IMG/VR virus record: IMGVR_UViG_2778261527_000006
From: a virus
Taxonomy: Duplodnaviria; Heunggongvirae; Uroviricota; Caudoviricetes
DNA length: 9,181 bases
Reading direction: 5' to 3' (one strand)
Shown: positions 593 to 8,173 of the stretch, piece by piece
Position numbering within the stretch: position 1 is the stretch's first letter
How the letters are laid out: the number at the start of each line of letters is the position of its first letter
The notes under the pieces: model-generated
Seen by the model: only the letters and a program-made list of their open reading frames with translations
The model's database searches: none
What the model was told of the DNA's origin: nothing
Translations under genes and position numbers: made by a program

Positions 593-2590
593 ATGGCTAA
601 AGCATGGAAAGATGTTATCGCCTCTCCACAGTATCAGGCGTTAGCACCAGAACAAAAAGCGCAGGCTCAGGAGCAATACTTCAATGAAGTCGTGGCCCCG
701 CAAGCCGGAGAAAATGCAGAGCAGGCTAAGCAAGCTTTCTATGCTGCCTATCCATTGCCATCTGTGCAGCAAGTGGAGACACAGCAACCAGTAGCACAGC
801 AACAACCACAGCAAAGTGGATTTATGTCTGATCTTGGCGAAGCAGTAAAAGAGACTGGCCGCGGACTGGTGCAGGCTGGCGTGAACGTGGCAAACATACC
901 TGCATCAGTTGCAGATGCTGTAACAAGCGCGGCGGCTTGGGCTGGCGGTAAACTCGGAATTGGCGATGGGACATATCACCCTGCGCCACGAGTAACAACG
1001 CAGGGATTAGAGCAGGACTTTGGCCTTCAGCAAGGCGCGCTGACTCCACAAACTACAGAGGGAAGGGTATTTGCTGAGGCATTGCCTTACCTCACTCCTG
1101 CTGGCATTGAGAGAGCGGCAACACAGGCACCAACACTCGCTGGTAGAATCGCTCAGGGTGCAACTCGCCTTCTCGCTGAAAACGCAGTCGGGTCACTTGC
1201 TGCAAATAGTGCGAAAGATGATGCGGAAGCACTCGCTACCGATTTAGGCGTTGGCGTTCTGGCTGGCGGCGCTATTAACGCTGCCGGACGTGGATTAGGC
1301 GCTGCTTATCGTGGCGTTCGTGGTGCTATTGCACCAGAAGCGCAGCAAGCTATCAGATTTGCAGAGCGTGAAGGAGTGCCTCTGCACACCACAGACCTGT
1401 TACAGCCTACTTCCCGCGTCGGAAAAATGGCGCAAACGACAGCAGAAAATATCCCCCTGGCTGGCACAAGCGGAATGAGAGCAACGCAACAGGAAGCGAG
1501 AAGCCAGTTGGTTCAGAGATTTGCTGATAAATTCGGTGAGTATGATCCAGCGGTTGTTATTGACAGCCTTAAAGCGAAAACATCAGGAATTCGTCGCGCT
1601 GCAGGAAATCGACTGGAGCAGGTTCAGAATGCTATGGCGAGAATAAACATTCAGCCTGCAAGAGCAATTCAGCAGATTGATACAGAAATATCTAACCTGC
1701 AGAAGCTTGGTAAGGTTGCTGATAACGAGACTATTTCAAAACTTCAGTCCTATCGTGATGAGCTTGTTCGCAATGCTGGTCCTGATGGTCCGGTAAATCT
1801 GGATTTGAAGCAATTAAGCGATCTGCGCAGCCAGTTCAGAATGGACGTGAAGGGGGAGCGACCAGTGTTACCAAACCGTTCCGATGCTGCCATTCAGCGC
1901 GTTTACAAGGCAATGACCGACGATATCAATGGTGCCATTGGTCAGAATCTTGGCAACGATACTCTCCGTAAATATCAGCAGGCCAATGCCGTCTACGCTG
2001 ACGAAGCGGCGAAACTAAAGAATACCAGGCTGAAGAATGTTCTCATGAAAGGCGACCTGACGCCGGAAGTTGTCAACAACATGCTATTCAGCAAGAACAA
2101 ATCGGAAATTAAGACTCTCTATAACTCAGTTGGTCGTGTTGGCAGGGCGCAAATGCGCAATGGCATCATTGGAAAGGCGATGGAGAAATCAGGTGGTTCC
2201 CCTGACCAGTTCCTTCGGCAGCTTAACATCCTGCAAAACCAGACTGGCATCACATTTAAAGGTCAGGAAGCCGCTTATCTGAAAGGATTGAAAAACTACC
2301 TGCAATCCACGCAGCAGGCTGCAAAAGCGGCAGTAACAACACCCACAGGGCAGCAAACTATCCCGTTCATTATTGGGTATGGGACGGCAATGAACCCGGC
2401 GACAACTGGCGCAGCAGTAAGCTACGGACTTCTTACTCGCGCCTATGAGAGCGAGCCATTCAGAAATGCAATGCTCCGAATGGCAAACACCCCACGCGGA
2501 TCAACAGCGTTCGAGAAAGCCATGCAGCAGGCACAAAAGGCCATTAACGCCCTGACTCAGGGGGCTAAGTCTGATGCGCTGTCAGAATAG
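593..2590 (+). CDS. putative phage DNA transfer / ejection protein (P22 E-protein class, gp16/gp20-like)
   Basis: 665-aa ORF with ATG at 593 and an upstream GGGGTGA SD, about 50% GC. Composition fits an ejection protein: Gln-rich N-terminus (QQVETQQPVAQQQPQQ), a Gly/Ala-rich hydrophobic stretch (LGVGVLAGGAINAAGRGLGAAY), then a long predicted helical region. It sits where the last ejection-protein gene lies in P22-like genomes, just before the immI (mnt) and tailspike genes. The functional call rests on synteny and composition, not a verified alignment. Confidence 0.5.
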   Translation: MAKAWKDVIASPQYQALAPEQKAQAQEQYFNEVVAPQAGENAEQAKQAFYAAYPLPSVQQVETQQPVAQQQPQQSGFMSDLGEAVKETGRGLVQAGVNVANIPASVADAVTSAAAWAGGKLGIGDGTYHPAPRVTTQGLEQDFGLQQGALTPQTTEGRVFAEALPYLTPAGIERAATQAPTLAGRIAQGATRLLAENAVGSLAANSAKDDAEALATDLGVGVLAGGAINAAGRGLGAAYRGVRGAIAPEAQQAIRFAEREGVPLHTTDLLQPTSRVGKMAQTTAENIPLAGTSGMRATQQEARSQLVQRFADKFGEYDPAVVIDSLKAKTSGIRRAAGNRLEQVQNAMARINIQPARAIQQIDTEISNLQKLGKVADNETISKLQSYRDELVRNAGPDGPVNLDLKQLSDLRSQFRMDVKGERPVLPNRSDAAIQRVYKAMTDDINGAIGQNLGNDTLRKYQQANAVYADEAAKLKNTRLKNVLMKGDLTPEVVNNMLFSKNKSEIKTLYNSVGRVGRAQMRNGIIGKAMEKSGGSPDQFLRQLNILQNQTGITFKGQEAAYLKGLKNYLQSTQQAAKAAVTTPTGQQTIPFIIGYGTAMNPATTGAAVSYGLLTRAYESEPFRNAMLRMANTPRGSTAFEKAMQQAQKAINALTQGAKSDALSE

Positions 2591-3061: not shown

Positions 3062-5128
3062 ATGTCAGATATCACCGCAAATGTTGTGGTAAGCATGCCT
3101 TCGCAACTCTTCACTATGGCGCGTTCTTTTAAAGCCGTAGCCAATGGAAAAATTTATATCGGTAAAATTGACACGGACCCGGTAAATCCTGAAAACCAGA
3201 TTCCGGTATATCTGGAACGAGAAGATGGTAAACATGTTCAGGTAGAACAACCAATTGTTATTAACTCTGCCGGTTATCCTGTGTATAACGGACAGATCGC
3301 CAAGTTCGTTACAGTGCAAGGCCATTCTATGGCTGTTTATGATGCGTATGGTGCACAGCAATTTTATTTCCCAAATGTGTTGAAGTACGACCCAGACCAA
3401 TTTAAGTATGAGCTTTCATCTTCACTTGGTTCTGGGATGGTTGGCGTCCAGCCAATTGGAACTTTGTATGATCAATCATTGTATGTTACACCGGAACAAT
3501 TCGGCGCTGTTGGTGATGGGGTTAATGATGATACAGAATCTATAGTGTCTGCTATGAAATACTGTTCTTCTGGGAAAATTCGTTGGGTAAGAGGTAAAAA
3601 AGGAAGCACATATCTCGTTTCTCAGGTAGAAATACCTGTTGGCATAAAAAAAATAAGTGATCTTAGCCTGATTGTCACAGCACAGGGTGGTGTCTGCTTG
3701 TTTTCGCAAGGTACTTCCGGTCACACAGACCTTGAAATTAGTGATTGTTCCATTAATGCAAATGGTGTTGCCAGAGGAGGAATTCTTCTTAGCGCAACAA
3801 CTAGGTGCAAAATACTAAGAAACAGAGTATATGGTTTCGGTGTTGATGGAACTGAACGATATGGTATACGTATTGGAACAACAGATATCACATCACTAAA
3901 CTTATACGATACCATAGAAGGAAATACAATTGAGATGCCCATAGATCCTGATAGTGGTGCAGGAACAGTTGGTATTGCTGGTATATATTTAGTAGCACAA
4001 AACAACATAGACACTGAAACTGGAAGTGTAAAATGGAATTCGCAACACAAAACCATTCAGTACATAACTGTGTCAAACAACACCGTTATCAACGGAACTC
4101 ACAACGTGCAAGCTTTCGGGTTATTTAATGCTGAATTTACAGGGAATATACTAATTGGAGGTTCGCATCGTAATATAAATCTTGGAACTGGTTGCGAGCG
4201 TGTAAAAATAGAGGGAAATAGGCTAATCAATGCAGAATCATCAGCAATTATTTTTGGAGAATCTAGATATATACAGATATCAAACAACTATATACAGTCA
4301 GCCTCTACTTCTAGTTACATATCTGATGATGCAGCTATCCAGTTTGCACAAGGTGCATACAGTATAGACATAATAGGCAACATGATACTAGGTGACTGGA
4401 GATACGGAGTACATTGCTTTAACTCGCGATATGTTTCATTAAAAAATAATACAATAACAGCATCTGTAGCTTGTATAGGAATAGAATCATCACAGACGCT
4501 TAAATTACCTGATAATGCAATATACAGTTCCAGAAGGAGTGTTACCAAGATGATTAATGGAAGCACGACTGAGTATTCCATATCTGGAAACGTATATACA
4601 CCTAACGGTGATTCAGCATGTGCTATTTATCTTTGCCAGCTAAATGGTGTTGTTCTTGGTAATATAAATATATATGGAGAAACAATCCATCAGGCTGGTA
4701 ATTTCAGACACATATTATACTTAGTTGAAGATGATAGTTTAATGACAGGAATTTCTGCCATAGATATTTCAGCAAAAAATGCTAATTACTCACAGTACTA
4801 TAGCATTAGGGGAAGGACTCCTTTCTATAAAATAGATAACGTTACCGCTCTTGAGGACCCATCTATTGAATATTTTGCTCCGGGAGGCACATCTAGTGCA
4901 TTTGTCGGGCCAAGCATATACCTTGACAATAAAGTTGTAAGTTACTTTTCTAATGGAATTGATGGGCAAATAATACAAGTAAGAATGTCTATAGGATCAA
5001 AGTTAATTCATAATAACAAGCTTATAAGGTTAAGAGGAGAAACAGATATAGCGTCAATATCAGGCAACACAATTATAACACTAAAAAGACTGAGTGGTAT
5101 TTGGTTTGAAATTTCAAGGAGTATATAA
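3062..5128 (+). CDS. phage tailspike protein: P22 gp9-type N-terminal head-binding domain fused to a pectate-lyase-like right-handed beta-helix receptor-binding/depolymerase domain
   Basis: The N-terminus [97 protein letters not shown]...NVLKYDPDQ matches the P22 tailspike head-binding domain ([56 protein letters not shown]...VLKYDPDQ). Downstream, [25 protein letters not shown] is a pectate-lyase-3-type signature, followed by repeated beta-helix motifs ([73 protein letters not shown]). The track ORF begins at ATG 3014, but the ATG at 3062 has a GGAG SD at 3051-3054 and gives the canonical N-terminus. Confidence 0.9.
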
Positions 5129-5174
5129 GGATTAGCTGGAGGGTTTAATAAAGCATGATAATTATTGCGTGTAA

Positions 5175-5217
5175 TAAATCACAAATTTAAACAATTCGTG
5201 ATTTATTTTCTTTTATC
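5175..5217 (+). terminator. candidate rho-independent terminator downstream of the tailspike gene
   Basis: Inverted repeat TAAATCACAAATT (5175-5187) / AATTCGTGATTTA (5193-5205), 12 of 13 bp paired, 5-nt loop, followed directly by TTTTCTTTTATC (5206-5217). The stem is AT-rich, so stability is modest. Confidence 0.35.
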
Positions 5218-5232
5218 TATGCGAAAATTACA

Positions 5233-5275
5233 AAATAATGGTGAGGTATTTTTCTATAAAGCCTCACCATTATTT
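5233..5275 (-). terminator. candidate terminator hairpin abutting the stop codon of the Wzy-like gene
   Basis: Perfect 13-14 bp inverted repeat AAATAATGGTGAG(G) (5233-5246) / (C)CTCACCATTATTT (5262-5275) with a loop of about 15 nt, ending next to the stop codon at 5276-5278. On the minus strand it is followed by TGTAATTTTCG, a weak T-tract. Confidence 0.3.
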
Positions 5276-6415
5276 TTACCCTGCGCAAAAATTGCGCAAA
5301 AAATCATTAAGATTTTCGCATCTTTTATTTCTTAGCATTTCTACACTCCTTTCATTATCCATAATCCAGTCAACTCTGTATTCCAATAATCTAGGTCTCT
5401 TTTCATCACTGAATGTTTTAACAGTTACAATTGATGAAATTAGAATGACCGTAGAAACTATAGCAATTGAATCGTAAGCGATTACGCTCTTTCTATATGT
5501 TGAAAGTATGTATCCAAACAAAAACGTCAATGGAATAAACATGTAATAGTAAAAGCGTGAAAATGCTGGTATAAAATAAATACCTATATGCAAGCATGCA
5601 AATATGAAAATTATATTCCATATTCTAGTGTATTCATCTTTACTTTTCCTGATTAGGAATCGCGTAATAATGATAAGATCAGCAATAATACCAAACCCAA
5701 AACCTACACTGCTGAGTGATTCTGAATAAAGAGATGCTTTACGCGCAAGCTCTACCCCAACTACAGGTATAGAGTAAACAAACTCAGTATTGCTCAAAAC
5801 AATACCACCAATTAATACCATTAAAGTTGTTATGCAAATACCTTTAATTACAAGCGGTTTTCTCTCTGAATAGTATACATGCCAGAATATCAGCACTATA
5901 ATTGCGGAGTAATGAAAAAGCGAAGCTATTAAAACAGACACTATAAATAGTCTGATTCTTTTGTCTAAAAGAAAATTAATTGAGTGGAAGCATATTACAA
6001 TAGCCACAAATTGACGTATTTGATCAACAACAAGAGACAGACCACCAAGCAAACACATGGCAAGCAATGTAGCAGGAATGTTTATAGGTATTGGTGCTTT
6101 TTTTAATGCAATAAAAGCGATGTAAAATGATAAAAGATAAAATATGAAAATAGCTGATTGAAAATTTATAGACAAATTTGCTAATACATAAAGATATATA
6201 TTGAATAGCAAATCGTAATTTATGGAGAACTCACTTTTAAATCCATCAAATACATAATAATAATTAACCCAATCAATTCCATTTGAATAGACAGCAGTAA
6301 AAATGCAAGAGCAGAATATTACATATGCCATTGCAAATAGTCGGTTAAATCTACATCTGAATGCACATATAAAAACGAAAGCAAGCGAAGTGAAGAAAAA
6401 AAATATCCAAATCAT
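5276..6415 (-). CDS. EpsG/Wzy-like polytopic inner-membrane protein (putative O-antigen polymerase / serotype-conversion protein)
   Basis: About 28-32% GC. The translation is highly hydrophobic with many predicted TM segments, and the N-terminal loop motif YSNGIDWVNYYYVFDGF resembles the G-x-D-(W/Y)-x-x-Y motif of EpsG-family / Wzy-type polymerases. No acyltransferase-3 (R-x-x-x-D-x-x-R-G) signature is seen. The track ORF starts at TTG 6439 with no SD; the first ATG at 6415 has an AGGT SD 6 nt upstream (379 aa from that start). Confidence 0.6.
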   Translation of the reverse strand: MIWIFFFFTSLAFVFICAFRCRFNRLFAMAYVIFCSCIFTAVYSNGIDWVNYYYVFDGFKSEFSINYDLLFNIYLYVLANLSINFQSAIFIFYLLSFYIAFIALKKAPIPINIPATLLAMCLLGGLSLVVDQIRQFVAIVICFHSINFLLDKRIRLFIVSVLIASLFHYSAIIVLIFWHVYYSERKPLVIKGICITTLMVLIGGIVLSNTEFVYSIPVVGVELARKASLYSESLSSVGFGFGIIADLIIITRFLIRKSKDEYTRIWNIIFIFACLHIGIYFIPAFSRFYYYMFIPLTFLFGYILSTYRKSVIAYDSIAIVSTVILISSIVTVKTFSDEKRPRLLEYRVDWIMDNERSVEMLRNKRCENLNDFLRNFCAG

Positions 6416-6439
6416 AAAATTACCTACAAAATTACACAA

Positions 6440-6518
6440 AATGAAGTCAAGTAGACATTTTGAAAAATGCTATTATAATAGCAAGAAAATCAACTAGTAA
6501 CCATAGTGAAAATCTTTA
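6440..6518 (-). promoter_or_regulatory. possible promoter region for the Wzy-like gene
   Basis: Perfect 12-bp palindrome CTATTATAATAG (6470-6481) containing a consensus TATAAT (minus strand, 6472-6477) 35-60 nt upstream of the candidate start codons. The -35 is poor (TTACTA), and TATAAT is frequent by chance in 30% GC DNA. Confidence 0.2.
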
Positions 6519-6722
6519 ATGCCTAGTGAAATTGTACAGTATATAGTTGCAGCAGTTACCATAATGATCGTCTACTGTCCAACGGTTTTGATTTGCATGC
6601 TTGTGGATTGGCTTCTAAGAAGCTATCGTATTGTTTCAAAAGAACAAAAAATAAATGGATTCATTGCTGGAAATGTCCTTTTTGTGTTCATTGCACCGAT
6701 ATTCCTGAACATGAATATGTAA
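6519..6722 (+). CDS. hypothetical small hydrophobic protein (67 aa, two predicted TM helices)
   Basis: ATG-initiated ORF in the gap between the Wzy-like gene and int. MPSEIVQYIVAAVTIMIVYCPTVLICMLVDWLLRSYRIVSKEQKINGFIAGNVLFVFIAPIFLNMNM has two hydrophobic segments. A 68-codon open frame is uncommon in 30% GC DNA, but the SD is weak and no homology is recognised. Confidence 0.25.
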   Translation: MPSEIVQYIVAAVTIMIVYCPTVLICMLVDWLLRSYRIVSKEQKINGFIAGNVLFVFIAPIFLNMNM

Positions 6723-7937
6723 TTATTTGGTTATGTTGACATTTTTGTTGTTTTTGCTGAGTGAATATAGCAATGTTGGTTGCTCCACCTTTTCATCAAC
6801 CCAATCCGCCCACCACTGCATCATTTCTCTGCGCTTATCGAGATACTGAGCATGGTTGTAAATCCCACGCACAGATCCGCCGTTGGCATGTGCCAGTTGC
6901 ACTTCAATAGCATCAGCAGGCCATTCGTGCTCGTTCATAATCGTGCTGAATTCATGCCTGAATCCGTGACCGCTTTCCAGACCCTCATAGCCGATTTGTT
7001 TGATCACAAGCAATACCGCGTTCTCGCAGATTGGCTTCTTCTTATCGTTGCGACCGGCAAAAACAAACTCTGATACTGGTTTGGTGATGGAGCTTAGCGT
7101 AGTGAGAAGTTCAACTACCTGGTCTGACATAGGAACCACATGAATTTTGCGTCCCTTCATCACACTGGCGTCGATGGTGATAATCCTGTTTTCAAAATCG
7201 ACGTTCTTCCATAGCATGGAACGAAGCTCTTTCGTTCTTAGGGCTGTGTAGCGTAAAACTTTGGTCGCAATGAGCGATACGATACTTCCTGAAAATGTTG
7301 CCAGTGCTTTGTTGAATGCCGGGATCTGGTCTGCAGGAAGAAACGGGAAGTTCTTCTTGCGGTATCCCTTCATGGCGTCAGCAAGGTCAGGTGCTGGGTT
7401 ATATTTAGCCCTTCCGGTGACAATAGCGTAACGGAAAACCTCGCCGCATCTTCTGCGGGCTTTGTTGGCTCGCTCCATTGCACCGCGATCTTCGAATCTT
7501 CGGATTACTTCCAGCAGTTGCATCGGCTCAATATCCTGAATCTCAAGACCGCCGATGATGGGTAAAATGTCGTCGTCAAACATTTTGGCAAGTTCGTTTG
7601 CATAGCCTACTGACCAGACTTGCTTCTTGTGCTCGTACCATTCCTTGTAAATCGCACTAAAGGAATTGTTGTTAGACGAAGCCTTTTTCGCCTTTACCGG
7701 ATCGATGCCAACCGAGATGTCTTTCCTCGCAGTCCATGTCTTATCCCTTGCTTCCTGCAAAGTCATAAGCGGATATTTTCCGACAGTCAGGATTTTCTCC
7801 TTACCGTCAATCTTGTAGCGAAGCTGCCATACCTTTTTCCCTGATACAGGGACATAAAGGTACAGGCCATTACCATCGAGTAGGCGGTATGGTTTTTCTT
7901 TCGGCTTTGCTGCTTCAATCTGCTTAACGGTGAGCAT
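6723..7937 (-). CDS. intS: site-specific tyrosine integrase (P4-type, tRNA-associated; IntS-like)
   Basis: The N-terminus MLTVKQIEAAKPKEKPYRLLDGNGLYLYVPVSGKKVWQLRYKIDGKEK matches the DUF4102 arm-binding domain of P4-family integrases. The catalytic region has HGFRHEF (H-x-x-R) and RGIYNHAQY (candidate catalytic Tyr). It lies directly beside the tRNA-Arg 3' end, as in the K-12 yfdC-argW-intS locus. The track start (7973) is a GTG; the ATG at 7937 gives the canonical N-terminus. Confidence 0.9.
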   Translation of the reverse strand: MLTVKQIEAAKPKEKPYRLLDGNGLYLYVPVSGKKVWQLRYKIDGKEKILTVGKYPLMTLQEARDKTWTARKDISVGIDPVKAKKASSNNNSFSAIYKEWYEHKKQVWSVGYANELAKMFDDDILPIIGGLEIQDIEPMQLLEVIRRFEDRGAMERANKARRRCGEVFRYAIVTGRAKYNPAPDLADAMKGYRKKNFPFLPADQIPAFNKALATFSGSIVSLIATKVLRYTALRTKELRSMLWKNVDFENRIITIDASVMKGRKIHVVPMSDQVVELLTTLSSITKPVSEFVFAGRNDKKKPICENAVLLVIKQIGYEGLESGHGFRHEFSTIMNEHEWPADAIEVQLAHANGGSVRGIYNHAQYLDKRREMMQWWADWVDEKVEQPTLLYSLSKNNKNVNITK

Positions 7938-8098: not shown

Positions 8099-8173
8099 TG
8101 GTGTCCCCTGCAGGAATCGAACCTGCAATTAGCCCTTAGGAGGGGCTCGTTATATCCATTTAACTAAGAGGAC
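8099..8173 (-). tRNA. argW: tRNA-Arg (anticodon CCU)
   Basis: The reverse complement reads GTCCTCTTAGTTAAATGGATATAACGAGCCCCTCCTAAGGGCTAATTGCAGGTTCGATTCCTGCAGGGGACACCA: a 7-bp acceptor stem (GTCCTCT/GGGGACA, one G-U pair), anticodon loop CT-CCT-AA, T-arm GGTTCGATTCC, encoded CCA. The 3' end faces the integrase gene. Confidence 0.95.

Follow-up and report, generated by a model that had tools for sequence, protein, structure and literature searches.

A putative portable serotype-conversion module joining a tailspike receptor-binding domain, an EpsG-family Wzy and a 67-residue hydrophobic protein in a decayed P22-like argW prophage of Escherichia coli

The conversion units of Salmonella phage ε15 and Pseudomonas phage D3 pair an alternative polymerase, Wzyβ, with an inhibitor of the host α-polymerase, which in D3 is Iap, a protein of 31 amino acids (aa) (PMC4815439, PMC12004945). 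In Lederberg- and Uetakeviruses, O-antigen modification genes lie behind the receptor-binding protein (PMC10408124). In prophages of Acinetobacter baumannii, wzy1Ph and wzy2Ph adjoin tailspike depolymerases, with sequence identity reaching into the depolymerase C-terminal domain and two downstream open reading frames (ORFs); the authors of that study speculate on a Wzy inhibitor (PMC13228068). The locus described here lies in a viral DNA stretch of 9,181 nucleotides (IMG/VR record IMGVR_UViG_2778261527_000006), the whole of which is referred to as the window. The window is 100% identical to the chromosome of E. coli strain H2 (NZ_CP028733.1) and is occupied by the right end of a prophage integrated at the tRNA-Arg(CCU) gene argW, adjoining yfdC. 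With a probability of about 0.68, positions 3401-6722 constitute a portable three-gene serotype-conversion module, consisting of the tailspike receptor-binding domain (RBD), a convergent wzy gene and a 67-aa ORF, s67, carried by a decayed P22-like prophage (Table 1).

The locus shares with phages P22, ε34, Sf6 and Kapi1 the same backbone, the argW/IntS site, a breakpoint after a head-binding domain of ~115 residues and the conversion-gene slot (PMC2629481, PMC8787464, PMC10408124). P22-like phages carry gtrABC or oac between the tailspike and int, whereas the window carries a predicted Wzy polymerase and s67 rather than a glucosyl- or acetyltransferase, and its RBD can be transferred together with the conversion genes as a single block, which occurs outside P22-like phages as well. 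As in ε15 and D3, a temperate phage brings its own Wzy and a very small hydrophobic protein, with an altered linkage between units and resistance to phages using the original O-antigen as the expected outcome (PMC4815439, PMC12004945). However, tblastn searches with wzy and s67 found no similarity to these systems among 50,697 phage records; a Wzy_C domain characterises ε15 Wzyβ (PMC4815439), whereas the Wzy described here is of the EpsG family; s67 differs from D3 Iap in having 67 aa, two helices and no WzzB mimicry; and the unit is contiguous with the tailspike RBD and travels along with it. The A. baumannii prophages resemble the window in placing wzy beside a depolymerase or tailspike gene, but there the polysaccharide concerned is capsule rather than O-antigen, the genus is another, the sequences are unrelated and no conserved small partner was defined.

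The tailspike is of P22-like modular build. Its N-terminal domain matches Pfam PF09008 Head_binding (E = 2.8e-64), and residues 1-120 match the PDB sequences of Sf6 gp14 (E = 4e-62) and the P22 tailspike (E = 4e-51). The remainder matches NosD/Beta_helix profiles and PHROG tailspike families (E = 1e-72 to 1e-108), suggesting a head-binding anchor followed by a linker-exchanged, predicted beta-helix RBD. This RBD has no DNA homology to the other argW prophages compared and shares 60-63% aa identity with RBDs fused to three other anchor types. Its relatives in the 50,697 phage genomes reach 40% identity only, in Ackermannviridae tailspikes. Elsewhere, more distant RBDs of 40% identity adjoin gtrABC.

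Related versions of the locus show that the three genes travel together. Four further versions of Wzy, at 60-85% identity, were recovered by protein searches (L009/L010, L018, L021 and the P0003 cluster); wherever the context is visible, wzy and a tailspike gene converge, the RBD of that tailspike is 60-63% identical to that of the window, and a 67-aa ORF diverges from wzy over 103-104 bp. The trio occurs in four diverged versions, and a fifth protein cluster, with adjacent accession numbers for wzy and s67, is found in E. coli and Enterobacter cloacae. Three kinds of anchor precede the module: a P22 Head_binding domain in the window; in L009, one of 215 aa that adjoins a lysis cassette; and, in Enterobacter kobei L021, Tail_spike_N, with a Peptidase_S24 gene next to the module. 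Positions 7697-10843 of L009 align with 9602-6451 of L021 as one uninterrupted 3.15 kb at 78% DNA identity, spanning exactly from the RBD start to the s67 stop, with nothing in common outside and unrelated backbones. This confinement of shared DNA to RBD-wzy-s67 is direct evidence for a three-gene recombination unit, and the divergence is congruent, L009 and L021 being the closest pair for all three genes. The RBD, wzy and s67 therefore recombine as one block between phages of differing anchors and neighbours, bearing out the proposal of a first-pass annotation of this DNA that the specificity domain and the Wzy-like gene had been acquired as one unit. All three genes are under purifying selection.

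The adjacency could instead be merely positional, since the gap between tailspike and int is the usual moron slot of P22-like phages, in which an RBD and a wzy that arrived separately could lie side by side without functional coupling. Other argW prophages do hold many different genes in this slot, the overall GC content differs between the RBD (36.7%) and wzy (31.1%), and the RBD recombines alone in L012 and L022. This explanation is nevertheless unlikely: the same trio keeps its order and orientation where the slot is not tailspike-int (the L009 lysis cassette, L021 Peptidase_S24), the L009/L021 homology stops exactly at the trio edges, and the GC content at third codon positions (GC3) is identical in the RBD and wzy, at 0.255. 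In L012, an RBD 84% identical to that of L009 is paired with another Wzy, of the TIGR04370 class, and an 87-aa ORF, a pairing that points to functional coupling. L022 is a lytic-looking phage with DNA polymerase A that has a related RBD without wzy. Independent occurrence of the two genes had been named by the first-pass annotation as evidence against a joint origin; the block does travel jointly, as in L009 and L021, but the RBD is also able to move by itself.

The L012-type locus (L012 10470-11878; also L011 and L013-L016) belongs to E. coli argW P22-like prophages with a related RBD and a different polymerase. The whole L012 tailspike is 68% identical to that of the window, and the polymerase, of 399 aa (TIGR04370, E = 7.7e-18), is 45% identical to the Wzy of the O133 O-antigen cluster considered below. 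The 87-aa ORF, predicted to be soluble, overlaps this polymerase gene and lies upstream of it. None of the complete E. coli genomes in the collection contains the L012-type cassette.

The borders of the block were mapped by alignment to six other argW prophages. Left homology breakpoints cluster at 3396-3406, up to which the tailspike head region has 93-95% DNA identity to the other prophages, and right breakpoints cluster at 6783-6789, with 97-98% DNA identity in intS from 6783 onward. The left border coincides with the end of Pfam Head_binding (residues 17-129 of the 704-aa ORF), and a breakpoint after the head-binding domain is the classical P22-like swap point (PMC2629481); this border, which had been placed at the tailspike domain linker from the sequence alone, is a true intragenic domain swap.

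The right border has a different history. IntS has 404 aa here and 385 aa in other IntS proteins, and 19 added AT-rich codons (QPTLLYSLSKNNKNVNITK, 6726-6782) stand where the normal int stop would be. In five other carriers (L017, L034, L035, L039 and L040), the same cassette, at 99.5% identity, is accompanied by an int of the normal 385 aa and by 339 additional bases, of which the 76-127 bp nearest int are common to many argW prophages; L034 and L035 (GCA_013074985.1 and GCA_012045385.1) are intact carriers. The stop-removing int deletion, with int fused to the 19 codons, is carried by H2, by A23 (the sole other complete genome with the cassette) and by four metagenomic contigs. Because the five carriers keep the normal stop and the partly shared extra bases, the int border of H2 and A23 is a secondary deletion, in which ~323 bp containing the normal int stop and 3′ flank were removed. 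The border inside the 3′ end of int is thus present in this sequence, as had been noted, but it is not the original edge of the cassette; the module proper ends at the s67 stop and not inside int.

In composition, the block had been described as an island of roughly 30% GC between flanks of about 50%. The island is real, but its GC content is 33.7% over 3450-6790 and 33.8% over the homology-defined block 3401-6782, and the right flank has 48.3%. The left flank has 51% GC to ~2613, followed by ~42% across mnt and the tailspike head-binding domain. The block itself has two tiers, with 36.7% GC in the RBD (3401-5128) and ~31% in the remainder (wzy, 31.1%; spacer between tailspike and wzy, 27%; s67, 35%), and the GC3 of 0.255 in its two larger coding parts compares with 0.39 in the head-binding domain and 0.54 in int. 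By Jensen-Shannon segmentation the composition shifts at 2614, 4916 and 6778. On the right the GC border is sharp, but on the left it is gradual and not at 3450, where the first-pass annotation had set it, because mnt and the head-binding domain are already at ~42%. The suggestion of a low-GC donor organism was rejected as needless, since chromosomal wzx and wzy of Enterobacter O-antigen clusters have the same composition (33-34% GC, GC3 0.27-0.30) and GC contents are higher, at 34-44%, in other versions of the module.

The wzy product matches the EpsG-family profile PF14897 at E = 1.4e-27 and 97.1 bits, against a curated cut-off of 30.1 bits, over profile positions 5-317 of 326, and is predicted to span the inner membrane several times and to have the fold of lipid-linked-glycan transferases. 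Its identity is 42-43% to the sole polymerase candidate in three Enterobacter O-antigen clusters (L019, L020 and L030), which share the layout rmlBDAC-wzx-GT2-GT4-(acyltransferase)-EpsG-gnd-ugd-wzz, where GT denotes a glycosyltransferase, and one source names a close relative 'O-antigen polymerase Wzy'. These matches suggest that the product is an O-antigen repeat-unit polymerase of the EpsG family. The chromosomal clusters resemble the module in this Wzy but lack s67 (L019, L020). A phmmer search of Wzy against PDB sequences gave no match, nor did tblastn of wzy against the 50,697 phage genomes, and a scan of the genome contigs returned four loci with no phage-type copy. If the EpsG-family protein were not a polymerase, it could be a GT-C enzyme, GtrC-like or otherwise, acting in the periplasm to attach a side group to completed O-antigen, so that conversion would proceed by decoration and not by a changed linkage between units. 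This appears improbable, though somewhat less so than a purely positional adjacency: the module has no gtrA or gtrB, a profile search of the window found neither gtrA nor GT2 genes of the kind that make up a gtr-type operon, the 42-43% identical homologs hold the wzy position in three wzx-containing clusters, and the close relative is named as a polymerase.

The start of wzy annotated in RefSeq, at 6331 (351 aa), is probably too short. The 28 codons upstream of it (6331-6415) are kept in all homologs (MIWIFFFFTSLAF... vs MVWIGFFFTSLAF...), making a start at 6415 (379 aa) more likely. At the other end of the gene, two terminator-like hairpins had been proposed in the cassette, and both fold. 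The hairpin at 5232-5276 is strong, with a 16-bp stem, U-runs on both strands, z = -6.9 on the plus and -5.0 on the minus strand, and none of 200 shuffles folding as well; that at 5173-5207 is weak, its segment energy being no better than that of shuffles (z = -0.7) despite a stem in the fold. The content that had been ascribed to the cassette, namely the RBD, an EpsG-family Wzy-like gene, a 67-aa hydrophobic ORF and hairpins, was confirmed throughout.

The third gene of the module, s67, is unannotated in RefSeq. Its product keeps a length of 67 aa, free of indels, in four diverged versions at 61-73% identity, with pN of 0.13-0.22 and pS of 0.62-0.81 (saturated), as for wzy; the dN/dS of ~0.1, constant length and conserved promoter identify it as a real gene. 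An exact copy of s67 is present in 75 blocks of the collection, and the cassette in roughly 75 samples. The hydropathy profile has hydrophobic segments at approximately residues 6-33 and 47-65, with a basic loop. A sigma-70-like promoter is predicted at 6452-6479 (TAGACA-16-TATAAT, 11/12 match), and the spacer length of 103-104 bp and both hexamers are kept in four versions whose synonymous sites are saturated. No GATC sites occur in 6416-6518, leaving this spacer without the Dam/OxyR phase-variation signature of gtr type, and no CII-type TTGCN6TTGC sites were found. A predicted promoter of its own, the two-way terminator and a GC content of 31% against 48% are features of a phage moron. Among 1.84 billion representatives, an exhaustive HMMER search placed s67 in a single cluster; a word-index search matched s67 to itself only, and no match was obtained in Pfam, NCBIfam or PHROG. 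Like an Iap-type protein, s67 is very small and hydrophobic, lies beside a phage wzy and is absent from the chromosomal loci L019 and L020, but it shows no sequence relation to Iap, with no match in the 50,697 phage records, and in sequence comparison no mimicry of the second transmembrane helix of Wzz. It is therefore not filed as Iap.

The distribution of the cassette links it to one O-antigen. Among 5426 complete E. coli genomes the cassette is present in two (H2 and A23), which are also the only ones with an L009-type module, and the O133 wzy is present in three, both cassette carriers among them (hypergeometric P = 2e-7). The O133 cluster of H2 and A23 consists of rfbBDAC, wzx, GT2, GT4 and wzy. 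Its Wzy is of the TIGR04370 class and is unrelated to the prophage Wzy by BLAST, while O133 wzx, GT2 and GT4 (L026 35722-38953) are 69-73% identical to those of the three Enterobacter clusters. Since O133 shares these genes with clusters whose Wzy resembles that of the prophage, the prophage Wzy probably joins the same O-unit by a different linkage. The O133 and Enterobacter clusters, with common wzx, GT2 and GT4 and dissimilar polymerases, have the appearance of a natural wzy replacement on one O-unit.

H2 and A23 are 100% identical over window positions 3118-7738, a stretch that opens in the tailspike and takes in the 3′ 80% of int. Beyond it, from 7739 (5′ end of int, argW flank and yfdC), they differ at 32 sites in 1.44 kb, and their chromosomes are ~2% apart outside the identical stretch. 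The end of identity at 7739 implies a recombination or transfer boundary inside int, and the block has evidently entered two backgrounds that share O133, as would be expected if the RBD sets host range; a receptor-related role agrees with the O133 association.

Some differences among the O133 strains were also observed. In H2, the O133 wzy (L026 39267-40425; NZ_CP028733.1 1889266-1890424) is annotated as frameshifted, with one extra T in a T7 run (column 316 of the gene) and one substitution relative to A23. A genuine frameshift would leave H2 with the prophage Wzy as its sole intact polymerase of O-units, but the extra base could equally be a homopolymer sequencing error. H2 also has an IS5-like element, ISKpn26 (L026 44662-45642), between a ugd-adjacent epimerase gene and wzzB that is absent in A23. 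In the third O133 genome, TB06052, the argW remnant (L029 8246-12489) contains intS, gtrA, gtrB and two hypothetical genes, without a tailspike.

The target could also be colanic acid or capsule, with the tailspike acting as a depolymerase and the EpsG protein as an exopolysaccharide polymerase. The RBD matches PHROG 8280, annotated as a colanic-acid-degrading tailspike (E = 1e-72), the PDB entry Phi92 gp150 matches residues 116-181, and the EpsG name derives from a biofilm exopolysaccharide gene. However, the PDB match spans just 66 N-terminal RBD residues; every one of these strains has an unremarkable set of colanic acid genes, whereas the cassette follows the uncommon O133 cluster; and the Wzy homologs lie between rml genes and gnd and not in the wca cluster. 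A colanidase assignment for the RBD was rejected on the first two of these grounds, and a target other than O-antigen is very improbable.

Under the favoured explanation, that of a serotype-conversion module directed at O-antigen, the ancestral phage would have adsorbed to O133-type O-antigen via this RBD. In the lysogen, wzy and s67 would each be transcribed from a separate promoter, the two diverging, and the wzy transcript would be closed at its 3′ end by the two-way terminator. The phage Wzy would take the undecaprenyl diphosphate-linked (Und-PP-linked) O-unit made by the host wzx, GT2 and GT4 genes and join units by a linkage other than that formed by the unrelated O133 Wzy of the host. 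The re-linked polymer would no longer be a substrate of the tailspike, so that superinfection would be excluded and loss of progeny on debris avoided, as with ε15 and D3. The s67 protein most likely would suppress the host Wzy/Wzz machinery, as Iap does in D3, or act as a specific partner of the phage Wzy. That the lysogen alters its receptor, as the first-pass annotation proposed, is what we infer from this arrangement; its further premise, that the receptor is that of the lysogen's own phage, does not hold for H2, which retains only a ~9-kb remnant and so has no phage of its own left.

Several points weigh against this explanation. The polymerase activity, its linkage, the tailspike substrate and the role of s67 are all deductions from homology and gene context, and GT-C folds also occur in GtrC-type side-branch transferases. 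The O133 association rests on two genomes, and in TB06052 argW is occupied by a gtr cassette. The link between the RBD and this wzy is not strict, as the separate recombination of the RBD in L012 and L022 demonstrates. No isolated phage among the 50,697 records carries the module, tblastn of s67 against these records (INPHARED, E <= 1) gave no match, and in Smith-Waterman comparison of s67 with the host WzzB 18-42% of shuffles score as high, indicating no Wzz similarity. Finally, the H2 prophage is incapable of making virions.

In this prophage remnant of ~9 kb, torI, lar and an ead pseudogene run straight into the ejection-protein gene. The prophage was inactivated by a large internal deletion, whose junction lies at ~156-592 of the window; here the ead/Ea22-like pseudogene of the early-left region abuts the 3′ end of the ejection-protein gene; similarity to the late regions of intact prophages begins at 516. 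In A23, a strain of capybara origin, IS1 cuts the tailspike at about codon 19 and nothing remains upstream, and in L017 (9288-11353), another E. coli carrier, the tailspike is split into two ORFs of 197 and 397 aa with wzy and s67 intact. Across these three states of decay, that of L017 being independent of the other two, wzy and s67 are intact, and they are thus kept in the host after the death of the phage.

Table 1. Features of the window, numbered from its first nucleotide.
Feature	Position	Strand	Method
gp16-like DNA-transfer (ejection) protein gene	593-2590		
Mnt/Arc gene	2680-2973	minus	
Complete P22-type tailspike gene	3062-5128	+	
Tailspike N-terminal head-binding domain (virion anchor), P22-like backbone; 3′ end is the left recombination border	3062-3400	+	
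Tailspike RBD (predicted beta-helix); first gene part of the mobile module	3401-5128	+	
Weak AT-rich hairpin followed by T-rich run, 3′ of the tailspike stop	5173-5207	+	fold
Predicted two-way intrinsic terminator between convergent tailspike and wzy	5232-5276	both strands	fold vs shuffles
wzy, EpsG-family polytopic membrane protein of predicted GT-C fold, 379 aa	5276-6415	-	
103-bp spacer between diverging wzy and s67; holds the predicted s67 promoter	6416-6518		
s67, 67-aa protein with two hydrophobic helices and a basic loop; third gene of the module, orphan family	6519-6722	+	
int read-through tail, 19 codons and new stop	6723-6782	-	
intS core (tyrosine integrase), backbone; right flank of the module	6783-7937	-	Pfam Phage_integrase, Phage_int_M, Arm-DNA-bind_3
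Entire intS ORF including read-through tail	6723-7937	-	
tRNA-Arg(CCU) argW, prophage attachment site	8099-8173	-	ARAGORN; Rfam tRNA 63.4 bits

Tailspike domain swapping, conversion genes behind the receptor-binding protein, phage-borne Wzy and co-transfer of a depolymerase C-terminus with wzy are all established in the literature. New in this locus are the particular Wzy-s67 pair, the joining of that pair to an RBD in a block found behind three types of anchor, and the link to O133. To our knowledge, D3 Iap has no sequence-defined counterpart in Enterobacteriaceae. It is conceivable, though doubtful, that s67 founds a new family of small phage membrane proteins that redirect host O-antigen assembly, either by silencing the resident TIGR04370-class Wzy or by coupling the incoming EpsG-class Wzy to the host Wzz; RBD-wzy-s67 would then be a self-contained recognise-then-rewrite cartridge that can be plugged in behind any tailspike anchor. 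If so, phages would carry alternative polymerases back and forth among O-antigen types that have an O-unit in common, the O133 host receiving an Enterobacter-type Wzy and the L012 phage carrying an O133-type Wzy.

The module offers a sequence-defined case in which receptor recognition and the predicted rewriting of the receptor are inherited as a single recombination block across phage lineages, and in which a rare E. coli serogroup cluster, O133, is tied to a specific prophage RBD and a second, predicted polymerase. With such a second polymerase in O133 strains, gene-based O-typing may mispredict the displayed antigen. The conserved 67-aa s67 protein is, in addition, a candidate regulator or inhibitor of Wzy-dependent polymerisation in Enterobacteriaceae.

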